A DNA stretch of 64,000 nucleotides from Candidatus Latescibacterota bacterium. Lineage in GTDB: Bacteria; Latescibacterota; UBA2968; GCA-2709665. The DNA is taken from the NCBI GenBank assembly GCA_965205485.1, contig OZ242180.1, forward strand, positions 1,088,001 to 1,152,000. Direction: 5' to 3'. How positions within the stretch are numbered: position 1 is the first letter of the stretch; each line of letters begins with the position of its first letter. The translations under genes were made by a program, and so were the position numbers. The notes below the pieces were generated by a model that saw nothing but the letters and a program-made list of their open reading frames with translations, was not told where the DNA came from and did not search any database. This document shows positions 10,728 to 16,938 of the stretch, piece after piece.

Positions 10728-11537
10728 ATGAGCGAATACATCAGGAACTATTACGACGCGGCGCCTGAACGCGAGTGGGAGCGGCTGGAAACCGGGCTTT
10801 CGCGAATCGAATTCGCAGCCACCCTGCGCCTGATTGAAAAATACTTTCCCGAGAACGGGGACGTTTGCGACATCGGGTGCGGACCGGGTCGATACGCCAT
10901 CGAACTCGCCAGACGCGGGTACCGGGTGACGCTGTTCGACCTTTCCGGCAAACTGCTGGTGAGAGCAAAGCAAGCGTTTACATCGGAAGGAATCAGCGCG
11001 GAACGCTTCATTAAAGGTGACGCACGCGACCTTGCCTGCTTTGACGACGAATCGTTCGATGCCGTACTGCTTCTCGGTCCTCTGTACCACCTGATCAAGA
11101 TGGATGATCGATCAAAGGCCTTGCGTGAGATGGTCCGCATTCTGAAACCGGGCGGCAGGGCAATAGTAGCCTTTCTCAATTCGTGGGGGCTGCTCAGAAG
11201 TGGTGTCGTCGATTTCCCGAAGCGTTTCCGAAATCCCGCTTTTCTGCGGAGCATGCTCGGCGAACAGGCATTTGAAGACCATGAACTCTCCGGATTCACC
11301 GAATGTCACTGGTCCAACCCCGATATCGCCAGCGAGGAACTTCAGGATGCGGGGCTGCGAATCATCAGCTATGCGGGTGCGCAGGGATTCCTGGGAGGCA
11401 TGGCGCAGCTGTTCGAGTCACTCAGGAAGGATGAACCGGAAGCATACGAAAACGTCCTGGAGTTCGCGGCTGAAACGTCGGAGTTGCCCCAGTTCAGAGA
11501 TGCAACCGACCATGTACACTTTGTGGTTGAAAAATAA
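10728..11537 (+). CDS. Class I SAM-dependent methyltransferase (copy A)
   Basis: DIGCGPGRY, GDARDL, FDAVLLLGPLYHL, LKPGG. Confidence 0.92.
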   Translation: MSEYIRNYYDAAPEREWERLETGLSRIEFAATLRLIEKYFPENGDVCDIGCGPGRYAIELARRGYRVTLFDLSGKLLVRAKQAFTSEGISAERFIKGDARDLACFDDESFDAVLLLGPLYHLIKMDDRSKALREMVRILKPGGRAIVAFLNSWGLLRSGVVDFPKRFRNPAFLRSMLGEQAFEDHELSGFTECHWSNPDIASEELQDAGLRIISYAGAQGFLGGMAQLFESLRKDEPEAYENVLEFAAETSELPQFRDATDHVHFVVEK

Positions 11538-12459: not shown

Positions 12460-13269
12460 ATGAGCAAGCACGTCAGGAACTTCTACGATTCAGTGCCCGA
12501 ACGCGAGTGGGGCCGATTGGAGGCGGGGCTCCAGCGAGTCGAATACGCTTCCACCCTGCGCCTGATTGAGAAATACTTTCCCTCGAACGGCGCGATATGT
12601 GACATCGGGTGCGGGCCGGGCCGCTACGCTATCGAGCTCGCCAGGCGCGGGTACCGGGTGGCTCTGTTCGACCTCTCGGAGAAGCTGCTGGAGAGAGCAA
12701 AGAAGGCGTTTGCATCGGAAGGAATCACCGCCGAACGGTTCATTCGAGGAGATGCACGAGATCTGGACGCGTTTGAAGAAGAATCGTTCGACGCTGTCCT
12801 GCTTCTCGGCCCCCTTTATCACCTGATCGCGAGGGACGATCGATCACTTGCCTTGGGTGAGTTGGTCCGCATACTGAAGCCGGGAGGCAGGGCGATTGTC
12901 GCGTTTCTCAATTCCTGGGGTATGCTCCGAAGCGGTATAGCCGGGTTCCCGAAGCGTTTCATCGATCCCGCCTTTCTTCAAAGCATGCTCGGCGAAAGGA
13001 CCTTCGAAGATCAGGAGCGTCCCAACTTCACCGAATGTCACTGGTTCAACCCGGAAATCGCTCGCGAAGAACTTCTGGATGCAGGGCTGCGAATTGTAAG
13101 CTATGCCGGCGCAGAGGGCTTTTTGGAAGGCATGGCGCCGCTTCTCGAGGCGCTGAGGACGAACGAACCAAAGGCATACGAAAACGTCCTGGAATTCGCG
13201 GCTGAAACTTCGGAATTGCCGCAGTTCAGAGATGCGACGAACCACGTTCACTTCGTCGTGGAGAAGTAG
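12460..13269 (+). CDS. Class I SAM-dependent methyltransferase (copy B)
   Basis: Same motifs and same length as copy A; about 78% identical by manual count. Confidence 0.92.
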   Translation: MSKHVRNFYDSVPEREWGRLEAGLQRVEYASTLRLIEKYFPSNGAICDIGCGPGRYAIELARRGYRVALFDLSEKLLERAKKAFASEGITAERFIRGDARDLDAFEEESFDAVLLLGPLYHLIARDDRSLALGELVRILKPGGRAIVAFLNSWGMLRSGIAGFPKRFIDPAFLQSMLGERTFEDQERPNFTECHWFNPEIAREELLDAGLRIVSYAGAEGFLEGMAPLLEALRTNEPKAYENVLEFAAETSELPQFRDATNHVHFVVEK

Positions 13270-13305
13270 GGCGCGCAGCAGACTAAGGAAGTTATGGGAG
13301 GCAAG

Positions 13306-13584
13306 ATGAAAAAACATTCCGGTAGCAACTTTGACAACTTCCTCGCCGAAGAGGGCCTTCTCGGTGAAGCGGAAGCCACAGCAACGAAACGGGTAATTGC
13401 GTATCAGTTGAATCAGTTCATGGAGGAGAACAAACTGTCCAAGTCGGCGATGGCGCGGCGCATGCAAACCAGTCGTTCGGCGCTGGACCGTCTGCTCGAC
13501 TCCTCCAATTCCTCCGTAACGTTGCGTACCATGGACCGCGCTGCGCGGGCCCTGGGAAAGCAGCTCCGCATCATCCTCACCTGA
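13306..13584 (+). CDS. XRE-family HTH antitoxin-like regulator
   Basis: HSGSNFDNFLAEEG...KRVIAYQL...MARRMQTSRSALDRLLD...VTL.T; GGAGG SD. Confidence 0.85.
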   Translation: MKKHSGSNFDNFLAEEGLLGEAEATATKRVIAYQLNQFMEENKLSKSAMARRMQTSRSALDRLLDSSNSSVTLRTMDRAARALGKQLRIILT

Positions 13585-13699
13585 TTTCCCGGCGCCGGAT
13601 AGTAGCTATTGATAGAACGCCCGCGGGACCTGGATTATCACGAAGCTGCCGGAACAGCGTTCGTTCGGACTCCCTGATGGAGATACCCAATGAGTCGGC

Positions 13700-13728
13700 T
13701 TGCCTTGAGGCCCGGTTATGATTATTAT
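13700..13728 (+). promoter_or_regulatory. Putative sigma70 promoter of the ankyrin gene
   Basis: TTGCCT-17 nt-TATTAT. Confidence 0.55.
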
Positions 13729-13734
13729 AACCGT

Positions 13735-13862
13735 CGAGCTCAACAGGGAGCCTCCGGTCCGCGGAAAGGGCTAAGCCCACCCACCTCGCCAGATCCTGAA
13801 ATTCCGATAGCACCTTCTTTCTGCCCGATAATGCGGACGCCGGGCGACTCTGCGAGAGGAGG
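13735..13862 (+). ncRNA. Candidate structured cis-regulatory leader RNA
   Basis: CCGGTCCGC (13754-13762) pairs with GCGGAC[GC]CGG (13833-13843); inner GGGC-TAA-GCCC; ends next to SD AGAGGAGG. Confidence 0.45.
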
Positions 13863-13867
13863 CTGCT

Positions 13868-15097
13868 ATGCCCCGCCGTCGAAGTCTTCCCGTTAGACCC
13901 AACATCGAGAACCTCAGGAAGCAGGCTAAATCGCTTCTGGACGCCTTTCGGACGGGCGATCCTGAGGCGATTTCCGCATTTGAGGGTCTGCATCCACGAG
14001 ACGTTTCCGCCGAAAGCGCCAGGCTGGCCGACGCCCAACTCGTACTCGCGCGATCGTATCGATACCCAAGCTGGCCCAGAATGCAGATTGCGGCCAGACT
14101 GTGCGCAGCTGTGTCTCGCGACGACCTGAAGTCCGTACGTGATCTGGTCGTGAAGCACCCCGAACTCCTGACTGAAGGGGCTCGGGGGCGGGGTTCACAC
14201 TGGGGCGCTGCGATGGGCTTTGCTGCTGAATTGGGCAAGACCGAGATTGTAGAGATGCTGGCCGACCTGGGTAGTCCGGAGATCCAACACGCTTTCGGGC
14301 GAGCCATCCTGCAGGGAAATGCCGATACGGTTCGCGCGCTGGTAAAGAAAGGCGCAAAGGTAGAGCGCGGAGTCGCGATGGGAGCCTGTGAAACCCTGAA
14401 TAGCAGGGGACTGCAGATGGTTCTTGATCTCGGCGGCGAACTTTGCGACGCGGACGGGGATTTTTTCGCGCCGGCTGCGATGGTTCTTGAGACCTACAGC
14501 CGCAGCCCGGCCGGAAAACATGAGTGTCTGAGAATTCTGGCCGAAAGTGGCGTGGAATTTCCAGACACCCCCGCTATGGCCTTCCATTTTGGGCGGATCG
14601 ATTTGCTGGAGCGTCATATGGACAGGGATCCCGAACTCATTTCCCGCAGATTCCGGTATGACGATATCTATCCCTCCGGCTTCCGTGTGGGCGACGACAC
14701 CGGTCTCCACGGTACACCGCTGGATGGGACAACGCTCCTGCACATGGCTATCGAATTTGACGAGGATGAGATATTCGATTGGGTTATCGATAACGGCGCG
14801 GACGCGAACGCCGTTGCCGACGTCGATCTCGACGGCTTTGGGGGTCACACGCCGCTGTTCAACTGTGTCGTCAAGAAAGGCCGGAAGGAGGACAGAATGG
14901 CTGTCGTGCTCCTCGAAAGGGGAGCGGACCCGTCCCATCGAGCGTCCCTTCGAAAGGGCCTTAAGTCAACCCCCGACGAAGCTGTACGTGAGTATAAGGG
15001 CGTTACACCCATTGAATACGCCGATCGATTTCACGACCAGAGCTATGTGAATCAAGCGGCGGTAAAGGCGATTGAATCCCGGATATTCTCAGGCTGA
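13868..15097 (+). CDS. Ankyrin-repeat protein with small N-terminal helical domain
   Basis: LPVRPNIENLRKQAKSLL...LADAQLVLARSY...SWP N-terminus; GTTLLHMA, GHTPLF, GADP ankyrin motifs. Confidence 0.85.
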   Translation: MPRRRSLPVRPNIENLRKQAKSLLDAFRTGDPEAISAFEGLHPRDVSAESARLADAQLVLARSYRYPSWPRMQIAARLCAAVSRDDLKSVRDLVVKHPELLTEGARGRGSHWGAAMGFAAELGKTEIVEMLADLGSPEIQHAFGRAILQGNADTVRALVKKGAKVERGVAMGACETLNSRGLQMVLDLGGELCDADGDFFAPAAMVLETYSRSPAGKHECLRILAESGVEFPDTPAMAFHFGRIDLLERHMDRDPELISRRFRYDDIYPSGFRVGDDTGLHGTPLDGTTLLHMAIEFDEDEIFDWVIDNGADANAVADVDLDGFGGHTPLFNCVVKKGRKEDRMAVVLLERGADPSHRASLRKGLKSTPDEAVREYKGVTPIEYADRFHDQSYVNQAAVKAIESRIFSG

Positions 15098-15182
15098 TCG
15101 AGAGAGGGGGTTGCGTGCCTGACCCCGACGAAGCATTGGTGGGAAAGCGAGGACAGTTGAACCTGCCGATTCGGAAAGCCTA

Positions 15183-15857
15183 ATGAGTCACTCCGTCCGC
15201 GGCCACCTTCGTCTAGAGATTGATGCCTACGACGAAGCCATCCGCCAGTTCATCCCTGGCTACGAGGAAGGCCTGAACAGGATCGCCGGCGAAATCGCCG
15301 CGATCCGCCCTGCCCTGGCGCTGGACCTCGGCACCGGAACGGGCGCCCTCGCCGAAGCGATGCTCGAGCACGAGAGCGTCGGCGCCGTGGAAGCCGTTGA
15401 CGTCGATCCGGAGATGCTGGACCGGGCCCGCACCCGGCTGAAGCGTTTCGGTGCCCGGGTGCGTTTCCGCGAATGTTCATTCGAGGCGCCGCTCCCCGCG
15501 TGCGACGCCGTGGCCGCCTGCCTGGCCCTCCACCATATTCCGGCGATGCAACGCAAGCGTACCCTGTACAAGCATATTTTCCGTGCACTCCGCCCCGGAG
15601 GGGTGTTCGTGACCGCCGACGTGACGATGACCGCAGACCCGGAGGAAAGGGAGCGGTGCTACCGAATCTGGACGGCCCACCTCGTTTCGCGCGGCATCGA
15701 CGAACAGCGCGCCCGCGAGCACTTCGACGAGTGGTCCTCCGAAGACACGTACTTTCCGGTCGAAGAGGAGCTCGCCGCGATGCGTGAGGCCGGGTTCGTT
15801 GCCGAATGCACGTGGCAGGACCCTCCCAACACGCTCCTCGTGGGACGGCGACAATAA
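15183..15857 (+). CDS. Class I SAM-dependent methyltransferase
   Basis: LDLGTGTG, LALHH, LRPGG. Confidence 0.9.
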   Translation: MSHSVRGHLRLEIDAYDEAIRQFIPGYEEGLNRIAGEIAAIRPALALDLGTGTGALAEAMLEHESVGAVEAVDVDPEMLDRARTRLKRFGARVRFRECSFEAPLPACDAVAACLALHHIPAMQRKRTLYKHIFRALRPGGVFVTADVTMTADPEERERCYRIWTAHLVSRGIDEQRAREHFDEWSSEDTYFPVEEELAAMREAGFVAECTWQDPPNTLLVGRRQ

Positions 15858-15900
15858 GGTTTGGAGTCGTTCTCGAATCCAAACTTGGAATAGAGCGCTG

Positions 15901-16938
15901 ATGAGTGAGCAGCTACACCATTACCTGCACGCCGCCGATCGAGCCCTGGAATACTACGATATCGGGGAAGTCCGCATCGCCGAGCGCAGGCAAGTGGGCC
16001 ATATCGGCTTTTCCGGCTACCGCATGGTCAAGTTTCGCGCGGACGGCGCATCCGGGCCTTACCTCGTCACCGTGTATTATGCCAGGGGAGACGGAGACAT
16101 CCATGATTATCGAACGGCCATCCGGTCCCACCTTCTCTGGCTCGATGCCCTGGACCGCGACACCGATCTGGTCATACAGAAACCCGTCCGCAGTCTGTCA
16201 GGCGACTTCATCACCGACGTGCAGCCCGATGGCGATCGGTCTTTTCTCGTCACCCTTCTCCGCTGGGTCGACGGCGAGTTGGTCTGGGACAACTACGGGG
16301 ACGAGGTGTTCGTCGACCTGCCATCGGAAATACTTTACAACGTCGGAACGGTCCTCGGCAAAATCCACCGGCACGGCAGTCAGTGGACCCTTCCCGAAGG
16401 CTTCTTTCGTCCCGGGAGCGAACATGAAGACCTGCAACTCGACCTGAACCGCTTGCATCCGGCCGCAGAGGACGGACGGATCGCCATCGATGATTTCGCG
16501 GTTCTGGAACGGACTGTGCGCCAGATTATCGAGCACCTCGCGAAAATGAACAGATCACCGAAATCCCGGGGACTCCTTCACGGAGATTTCTCATGCGGAA
16601 ATTGCATCGTGCATCTGGGCGGGATCCGTCCGATTGATTTCGACTGGTGTCGGTTCGGGCATTTACTGGCAGACGTTGGATGGTGCTTCGCCGTAAATCC
16701 GATGAGTCCGGCGCTGTGCCAGGCTTTTCTCGACGGGTACGAAGAACAAATCCTGTTGCCCGATAACCATTTGCGAGTCATCGAAAGTTTCTTTATCGAG
16801 TCCTGCATTCGACTCCTGTCCTGGCGTACTGAGAATCCTGGCGAGGATTTCCCGACGCTGCCCCGTTTCGTGAAAGGCGCCTGCCGGAAATATCTCGAAG
16901 GCGAACCGTTCGTCCTCGAGTGGATGGAGGACCTGTGA
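15901..16938 (+). CDS. APH/homoserine kinase II-like phosphotransferase
   Basis: LLHGDF...N and IDFD motifs. Confidence 0.85.
   Translation: MSEQLHHYLHAADRALEYYDIGEVRIAERRQVGHIGFSGYRMVKFRADGASGPYLVTVYYARGDGDIHDYRTAIRSHLLWLDALDRDTDLVIQKPVRSLSGDFITDVQPDGDRSFLVTLLRWVDGELVWDNYGDEVFVDLPSEILYNVGTVLGKIHRHGSQWTLPEGFFRPGSEHEDLQLDLNRLHPAAEDGRIAIDDFAVLERTVRQIIEHLAKMNRSPKSRGLLHGDFSCGNCIVHLGGIRPIDFDWCRFGHLLADVGWCFAVNPMSPALCQAFLDGYEEQILLPDNHLRVIESFFIESCIRLLSWRTENPGEDFPTLPRFVKGACRKYLEGEPFVLEWMEDL

Follow-up and report, generated by a model that had tools for sequence, protein, structure and literature searches.

A double-pseudoknot leader RNA and a small basic N-terminal domain that recur together ahead of unrelated proteins: a candidate autogenous control cassette

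Does the leader RNA of a bacterial ankyrin-repeat gene belong to the repeats, or to the small domain with which the protein begins? The question is raised by a locus in a 64,000-nucleotide stretch of Candidatus Latescibacterota DNA (contig OZ242180.1, positions 1,088,001 to 1,152,000; referred to here as the window). An earlier note, made from the letters of this stretch, proposed that leader and domain travel together, with the domain binding its own RNA, or that the leader is a riboswitch-like sensor. Here, we report that the RNA-plus-domain module is real, widespread, and apparently undescribed, and we weigh the explanations for it.

RESULTS

Window locus and N-terminal domain

An ORF on the forward strand (13868 to 15097; ATG at 13868) encodes a 409-aa product. 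The promoter and the two parts of the protein are as follows.

13700 to 13728 (+): sigma-70-type promoter (−35 TTGCCT, 13700 to 13705; 17-nt spacer; −10 TATTAT, 13723 to 13728), placed by sequence match and comparison
13868 to 14083 (+): N-terminal four-helix domain, residues ~1 to 72; net charge, +5; conserved R17, K21, Q57, R62, and W69
14084 to 15097 (+): ankyrin-repeat cargo, the remainder of the 409-aa ORF; Pfam Ank_2, E 2e-12, best stretch residues 282 to 357

The compact helical domain that the earlier note had separated from the ankyrin repeats is recovered as such in an AlphaFold2 model (~72 aa; four helices; pLDDT, 94.5); it lies ahead of the repeats and had no Pfam or NCBIfam match. 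The module is single copy in the window's genome, where no paralog was found, and its closest relatives (85 to 96% identical) come from records labeled Candidatus Latescibacterota or Gemmatimonadota. A 68-aa ORF overlapping the leader (13690 to 13896) was rejected as a gene: it has no Pfam match, and its ATG is absent from eight close orthologs.

Architecture of the leader

We picked 48 related leaders in which the core word is matched almost exactly and aligned them by sequence only (mean pairwise identity, 52%). Because P1 is out of register in this alignment, segment pairs were also scored as cognate versus swapped, a measure that tolerates misalignment. The leader of the window is ~133 nt long (13735 to 13867), and its elements, with the family-wide values from the 48 leaders, are listed below.

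13738 to 13751 (+): P1 hairpin, 13738 to 13741 with 13748 to 13751, loop L1 at 13742 to 13747; cognate versus swapped z, 8.1; arm sequences vary among relatives
13753 to 13765 (+): possible short stem P2, 13753 to 13755 with 13763 to 13765, closing a loop that holds a PK2 strand; seen by eye
13757 to 13762 (+): PK2 5' strand GTCCGC, pairing with 13833 to 13838; 99.3% of cells paired, 4 of 6 pairs changed on both sides; z, 10.5
13768 to 13778 (+): P3 hairpin GGGC-TAA-GCCC; 97.9% paired, 4 of 4 pairs changed on both sides; top pair in the unbiased scan
13780 to 13782 (+): PK1 3' strand, pairing with loop L1; 78.8% paired across the family, 4 of 5 pairs changed on both sides; z, 9.0
13807 to 13827 (+): 5' strand of the P4/P5 hairpin, with the anti-SD tract at 13813 to 13821 and the P5 strand at 13822 to 13827; P4 83% and P5 80% paired; z, 8.7 and 6.7
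13833 to 13838 (+): PK2 3' strand GCGGAC, in the P5 loop; covaries with 13757 to 13762
13841 to 13870 (+): P5 3' strand (13841 to 13846), SD (13856 to 13862, paired in P4), and start codon (13868 to 13870); P4 pair probability in the window, 1.0

Judged by comparison of sequences, the leader is a structured RNA family in which covariation backs five helices. The first is a 5' hairpin, and the second is the pseudoknot that its loop forms; then come the GGGC/GCCC hairpin, a long-range pseudoknot of six pairs, and a hairpin in two parts that buries the SD. Across PK1, PK2, P3, P4, and P5, 87% of 1,427 alignment cells hold standard pairs and 20 of 30 pairs have changed on both sides, a level of pairing reached by 0 of 500 shuffles (which ignore kinship). 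The alignment-tolerant score favored cognate over swapped segments for P1, PK1, PK2, P4, and P5 (z, 6.7 to 10.5; control, −0.7), and an all-pairs scan against a tree-based null ranked one P3 pair and one PK1 pair first, these two being the only ones with E<0.1. G-U pairs are among the compensatory changes, some of which fall in long-range pseudoknots. Conservation and covariation of the leader among homologs, which the earlier note had named as a check of its proposal, are thus present, and the conserved 5' structure covers the SD.

The hairpin at 13768 to 13778, the pyrimidine tract, and the SD that the earlier note had described all exist where it placed them, the pyrimidine tract being the anti-SD strand. 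Its long-range helix (13754 to 13762 with 13833 to 13843) stands in part: the inner GTCCGC/GCGGAC segment is PK2, and the outer half is unsupported. Nor does this helix close the leader; it is instead a pseudoknot into a hairpin loop. At its three tested pairs, the CCGG/CCGG extension past the bulge is retained by 18, 24, and 39 of the 48 rows. As an outer helix it is unsupported, with no cognate advantage (z, 0.4), and the same bases pair in P5 instead (z, 6.7). Overlooked in that first reading were P1, the pseudoknot from the P1 loop, and the SD-burying hairpin.

Some elements vary within the family. PK1 has two to three pairs in the window's lineage (the window and eight close orthologs, by eye) and up to five in the family-wide tests. 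P2 lacks covariation support in the 48 long-form leaders (z, −1.2), and a matching hairpin in the short-form leaders described below is 91% paired. In the window's lineage, an extension of the 3' hairpin (13807 to 13812) pairs over the start codon. The SD hairpin, predicted with no protein present, has a probability above 0.5 in 24 of the 48 leaders and of 1.0 in the window. An alternative ON pairing that would free the SD, between the purine tract of the core and the anti-SD, gave no cognate advantage in the 48 leaders (z, −0.6).

Folded alone, the whole leader of the window is about as stable as its shuffles (z, −0.07) and its 5' half gave no stability signal, the 3' hairpin (13807 to 13870; −27.2 kcal/mol; z, −3.1) being the sole part that stands out. 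The case for a leader structure beyond chance is a comparative one, built on sequences from relatives.

The TTGCCT-17-TATTAT promoter is also where the earlier note had put it. This call is weak when taken alone, because two promoter-like sites were observed within 12500 to 16500 versus 0.8 expected. Among the 48 leaders, 34 have a promoter-like site 25 to 33 nt before the PK2 strand; seven control windows gave 0 to 1 of 46 apiece. From this fixed spacing, the RNA probably begins at P1, and we infer a transcription start near 13735. Apart from the two boxes and the base that precedes the −10 box, promoter positions in the same 48-leader set carry <0.25 bit, and no conserved operator was found around the promoter.

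Linkage of the RNA to the domain

A covariance model of the RNA and profiles of the domain were run on ten whole genomes (that of the window, seven with many copies of the domain, and two free of it). At an RNA threshold of E<0.01, there were 71 RNA matches, 26 of which belonged to the training set; the 78 domain loci were counted with second copies in one ORF merged and two weak matches in the window's genome left out. Sixty-three of the 71 RNA matches lie within 100 nt upstream of a domain and 2 head an operon that has the domain gene in second place, so that 65 precede a gene or operon of one protein family; the other 6 have no detectable domain gene. From the protein side, 63 of the 78 domain loci carry the RNA directly, 2 carry it via an operon, and 13 have no RNA within 1.2 kb. 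The two genomes without the domain are also without the RNA. That leader and domain travel together, as the earlier note had supposed, is borne out by these counts. Such linkage would also follow from co-inheritance of adjacent DNA, the genomes sampled being related. The RNA structure is conserved, its SD is buried by the 3' hairpin, and the RNA is tied to the domain rather than to the cargo.

In another phylum (61 genomes), the model gave six matches, and all five of the new ones precede a domain gene. A protein search yielded nine plasmid or phage records, seven of which were examined; six of these score with the RNA model, and in the seventh PK2 is changed but complementary (by eye). One phage record (OQ572412.1, marked UNVERIFIED) combines the RNA (E 1e-6) with a domain gene and is the sole match in 50,697 phage records; its sequence is possibly host DNA. 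No holder of the leader RNA was listed among sequencing runs.

The six RNAs without a domain gene look decayed, comprising four 5' halves, one damaged copy, and one copy ahead of a truncated domain start, and none of the 71 matches is an intact full-length RNA before an unrelated stand-alone gene. Decayed or half copies, some with gene remnants, were seen at loci L175, L216 to L220, and L145, which suggests frequent duplication and loss of the cassette. Another locus (L117:1251-1480) has an intact RNA followed by ~80 extra bases, with a second SD-like site, before its domain gene.

The operons separate the RNA from the domain gene. At L110 and five close relatives, the RNA is followed by a 336-aa gene without the domain and then by a stand-alone domain gene of 95 to 115 aa. 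At L176 and L221, the RNA leads a FliG_C-like gene, behind which lies a two-domain gene, and at L176 both PK2 strands have changed in step. The RNA-domain link thus needs no physical fusion of the RNA and the domain gene. The 336-aa first gene is SnoaL-like (L110:443-1764; L111, L113, L114, L120, and L121).

Short-form and PF20066-type leaders

Genes with glyoxalase cargo carry a ~70-nt short form of the leader that shares the P1-PK1-P3 core (36 sequences). By eye, it has no SD-like tract; a seven-pair helix ends next to the start codon and competes with P1. The short-form helices are 92.9% and 92.3% paired in the 36 sequences, with weak covariation: of 500 shuffles, the counts were 3 to 31 for four of the measures and 224 for the fifth.

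A profile-profile comparison (hhalign, 97.9%; E 3.5e-13) shows homology between the domain and the N-terminal ~55 residues of a more distant relative, Pfam PF20066 (Glyoxalase_8). The PF20066 profile does not match the window's domain at E up to 1 and matches 7 of 19 domain members weakly (best E, 0.009). We inspected 20 PF20066 loci and aligned 16 with a leader visible by eye, omitting two without a leader, one with a leader, and one divergent locus. The 16 leaders have the same topology in other sequence: 90.6% of cells are paired, and 14 of 24 pairs show a double change. Homologous N termini and a shared leader topology unite the two groups, whereas the window's domain carries an extra helix and the RNA model of its family matched none of the seven PF20066 leaders tried. 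In a tree of the domains, the short-form set is one clade (support, 0.68) and the PF20066 set is another (0.98), which fits co-divergence of RNA and domain, with the caveat that kin share labels. PF20066-type leaders with the double-pseudoknot topology and no Rfam match were recorded at L190, L192 to L202, L204 to L207, and L209.

The domain family and its cargo

A profile built from 19 domains (cutoff, E up to 0.001) retrieved 7,421 clusters at 50% identity. Within the window's phylum, 63 of 151 genomes have the domain, at up to 18 copies each. Among the named carriers are Acidobacteriota, Alpha-, Beta-, and Gammaproteobacteria, a Mycolicibacterium, and an Armatimonadota MAG; carriers in culture include Methylosinus sp. 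C49, Variovorax paradoxus VAI-C, and Gemmatirosa kalamazoonensis. As the earlier note had stated, the C-terminal partners of the domain vary: cargo from at least 12 unrelated Pfam families was found among 76 domain proteins, which were selected by hand and are not a random sample (ankyrin, 31; FliG_C, 10; glyoxalase, 7; APH kinase, 4; bifunctional nuclease, 3; sigma-54 activator, 3; FliM, 2; AHSA1, epimerase, PcfJ, AhpC, and Clp_N, 1 each). Eleven of the 76 have no detected cargo, and stand-alone domains exist. The variety of cargo fits a shared domain and not a shared pathway. FliG C-terminal or FliM cargo recurs, several per genome (L119, L127, L128, L131, L133, L139, L140, L142, L148, L176, L184, and L185).

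Lysine or arginine occupies residues 17, 21, and 62 in 95, 99, and 89% of 92 domains, respectively, and W69 is kept in 99%. In a sample of 151 proteins that favors high scores, 87 have two to three copies of the domain, some of them internal. An apparent loss of the basic motif in domains without the RNA (1 of 6 versus 58 of 83) comes from a set too small and too related to count; one domain without the RNA (L136) keeps the motif, and some genes with the RNA lack it.

Searches with the domain gave no clear match to a solved structure. The best PDB sequence match had an E value of 0.09, a fold search of the PDB reached Z 4.3 at best (rmsd, 4.4 over 67 residues), and Foldseek returned nothing at E 0.001 and no helix-turn-helix match by fold. 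DUF1244 chain 3fyb scored Z 3.8 and 5.0 against two domain models, within the range of chance helical matches, and OST-HTH matches were weak and confined to 2 of 19 domain members. The predicted RNA binding is therefore not borrowed from a known fold. The best ESM Atlas score (0.86, unnamed clusters) is a lead only. Twenty-three of the 92 domains weakly match the NCBIfam model NF004629 (PRK05973), annotated as a DNA helicase. A similar N terminus at locus L208 follows a structured-looking leader of yet another sequence, and this PRK05973-like group is possibly a third leader class.

Relation to described systems

The leader had no match in Rfam 15, an outcome in favor of the earlier note's proposal: there were none at the gathering score in the window, and none at E up to 1 falling on the leader in 14 and 20 related loci. 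The supplement 5 alignment rows of the Solibacter-1 motif (PMC2864571) are unrelated to the leaders, and five longer signature words of the leader are absent from the supplement file of that paper, in which gapped rows could hide them. The available portions of the supplements of PMC8632094, PMC2864571, and (in part) PMC8040213 gave no match to the leader. The module is not described in the accessible main texts of three motif surveys (PMC11109978, PMC8632094, and PMC5737381), the supplements of PMC11109978 and PMC5737381 being places that may hold the motif. A search of full-text literature, mostly outside subscription papers, found no description of the module, which may therefore have been listed before.

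Most known cases of autogenous control by a leader RNA concern housekeeping proteins that have a second RNA target. The S15 regulators are structured 5' leaders that cover the ribosome-binding site and are the target of a protein encoded in their own operon; the RNA structures differ by phylum (PMC4137082). The leader here likewise covers the ribosome-binding site, and its binding by the domain is predicted. In contrast to the S15 type, the partner here does not belong to the ribosomal proteins, and no second RNA target is known for it; it is present up to 18 times in a genome and is attached to unrelated cargo.

ANTAR domains are fused to sensor domains, and their RNA is a twin hairpin, unlike the double pseudoknot here. 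Pfam scans of the domain proteins gave no ANTAR match. The ANTAR system pairs a small domain that binds RNA with a cognate motif, which frequently overlaps the ribosome-binding site (PMC8164766); those RNAs precede many target genes, whereas the RNA here precedes the domain's own gene or operon. By analogy, the module would act in the manner of ribosomal-protein leaders, and it resembles ANTAR in joining a small domain to an RNA motif, but it belongs to neither. It also resembles in outline the "protein binding candidate" class, described in PMC11109978 as a 5'-untranslated-region motif before a gene for a nucleic-acid-binding protein, probably self-regulating; the main text of that survey does not mention ankyrin, glyoxalase, or VOC genes. 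A preprint on retron translational repression is, by its abstract and outline, unrelated to the module.

DISCUSSION

Promoter, double-pseudoknot leader, and small basic N-terminal domain probably constitute a portable cassette, to judge from the comparative evidence. We favor, with similar confidence, a negative feedback in which the domain would bind its own leader and repress translation. The leader would begin where transcription begins; the domain, translated from that mRNA, would bind the folded RNA via its conserved K/R residues; and the bound domain would stabilize the structure whose SD hairpin is kept shut by the PK2 pseudoknot, which would turn off translation of the gene for the domain itself or of the gene that opens its operon. 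Cargo behind the domain would then be held at a set level and made again upon loss, sequestration, or change of the protein by the cargo domain. Counting for feedback are the covarying leader structure, the conserved K/R residues, the lack of a conserved operator around the promoter, and a linkage that holds with varied cargo, in split operons, and across the PF20066 divergence; counting against it are the 13 of 78 domain loci without the RNA, the 6 of 71 RNAs without a domain gene, the two to three pairs of PK1 in the window lineage, the only two pairs with E<0.1 in the tree-based scan, the lack of a match to a solved structure, and the failure to find a conserved ON pairing.

More tentatively, the long, short, and PF20066-type leaders, and perhaps more, may be mutually specific classes within an old and widespread superfamily of matched RNA-protein pairs, each joining a small fold not in the PDB to a double-pseudoknot leader. 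Such pairs, up to about 18 per genome, could act as a plug-in dosage controller or as a one-component RNA-level sensor for the fused protein.

Leader and domain are adjacent, so a duplication moves both, and this leaves room for an account that we consider unlikely. The RNA would be a real translational control element read by a separate host protein, by temperature, or through ribosome standby, and the domain would be a localization, oligomerization, or degradation tag copied with promoter and leader as a block. Decayed halves, truncated copies, the two to three domain copies in many proteins, and domain genes without the RNA would all suit such copying. However, the link persists where another gene lies between the RNA and the domain gene and across the split from PF20066, the basic residues are strongly conserved, and the 71 matches hold no intact full-length RNA before an unrelated stand-alone gene.

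If the 5' core P1-PK1-P3 were a riboswitch aptamer for a stress-linked small molecule or ion, with the P4/P5 hairpin as the expression platform, the compact pseudoknotted core, its conserved unpaired A residues, and the interchangeable 3' parts (an anti-SD hairpin in the long form; a helix abutting the start codon in the short form) would be explained. The 12 unrelated cargo families in the 76 proteins, among them ankyrin, FliG_C, glyoxalase, kinase, nuclease, and sigma-54 activator, do not share the pathway expected behind a metabolite riboswitch, however; the domain is the sole constant, and the PF20066 leaders share the topology and not the core sequence. The riboswitch reading is less likely than domain binding, and we rate it as quite unlikely.

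The cargo consists mostly of binding or sensing modules, and the SD hairpin is predicted without protein, so that the default may already be OFF. Both points would suit a ribonucleoprotein sensor, in which binding of domain to RNA needs, or is released by, a signal passed on by the cargo, or in which the domain activates translation. Positive feedback on its own translation would need an extra off-switch, however, and stand-alone domains without cargo exist, which makes this version improbable. That the small, basic, helical domain binds DNA and represses the promoter from which it is expressed, the conserved leader being the operator, is very improbable in view of the G-U pairs among the compensatory changes, the long-range pseudoknots, the lack of conserved bases around the promoter beyond its boxes, and the lack of a helix-turn-helix fold match.

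Apart from these alternatives, one uncharacterized domain and one RNA architecture have apparently been reused as a transferable cassette before thousands of unrelated proteins in several phyla. If domain and leader do bind in the way that we favor, both a large domain family that now lacks annotation and the N terminus of PF20066 would gain a function, and one more RNA-binding fold and one more RNA family would be added. The classes would also offer naturally diverged RNA-protein pairs with directly testable specificity, which might serve as orthogonal feedback parts.

Neighboring genes in the window

Directly upstream of the promoter lies a 96-aa helix-turn-helix gene (HTH_37; 13294 to 13584, +), which we take to be antitoxin-like; no obvious partner gene was found beside it. 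Farther upstream, two similar 269-aa SAM-dependent methyltransferase genes (10728 to 11537 and 12460 to 13269, both +) stand on either side of a metallophosphoesterase gene, and the pair is a local duplication.
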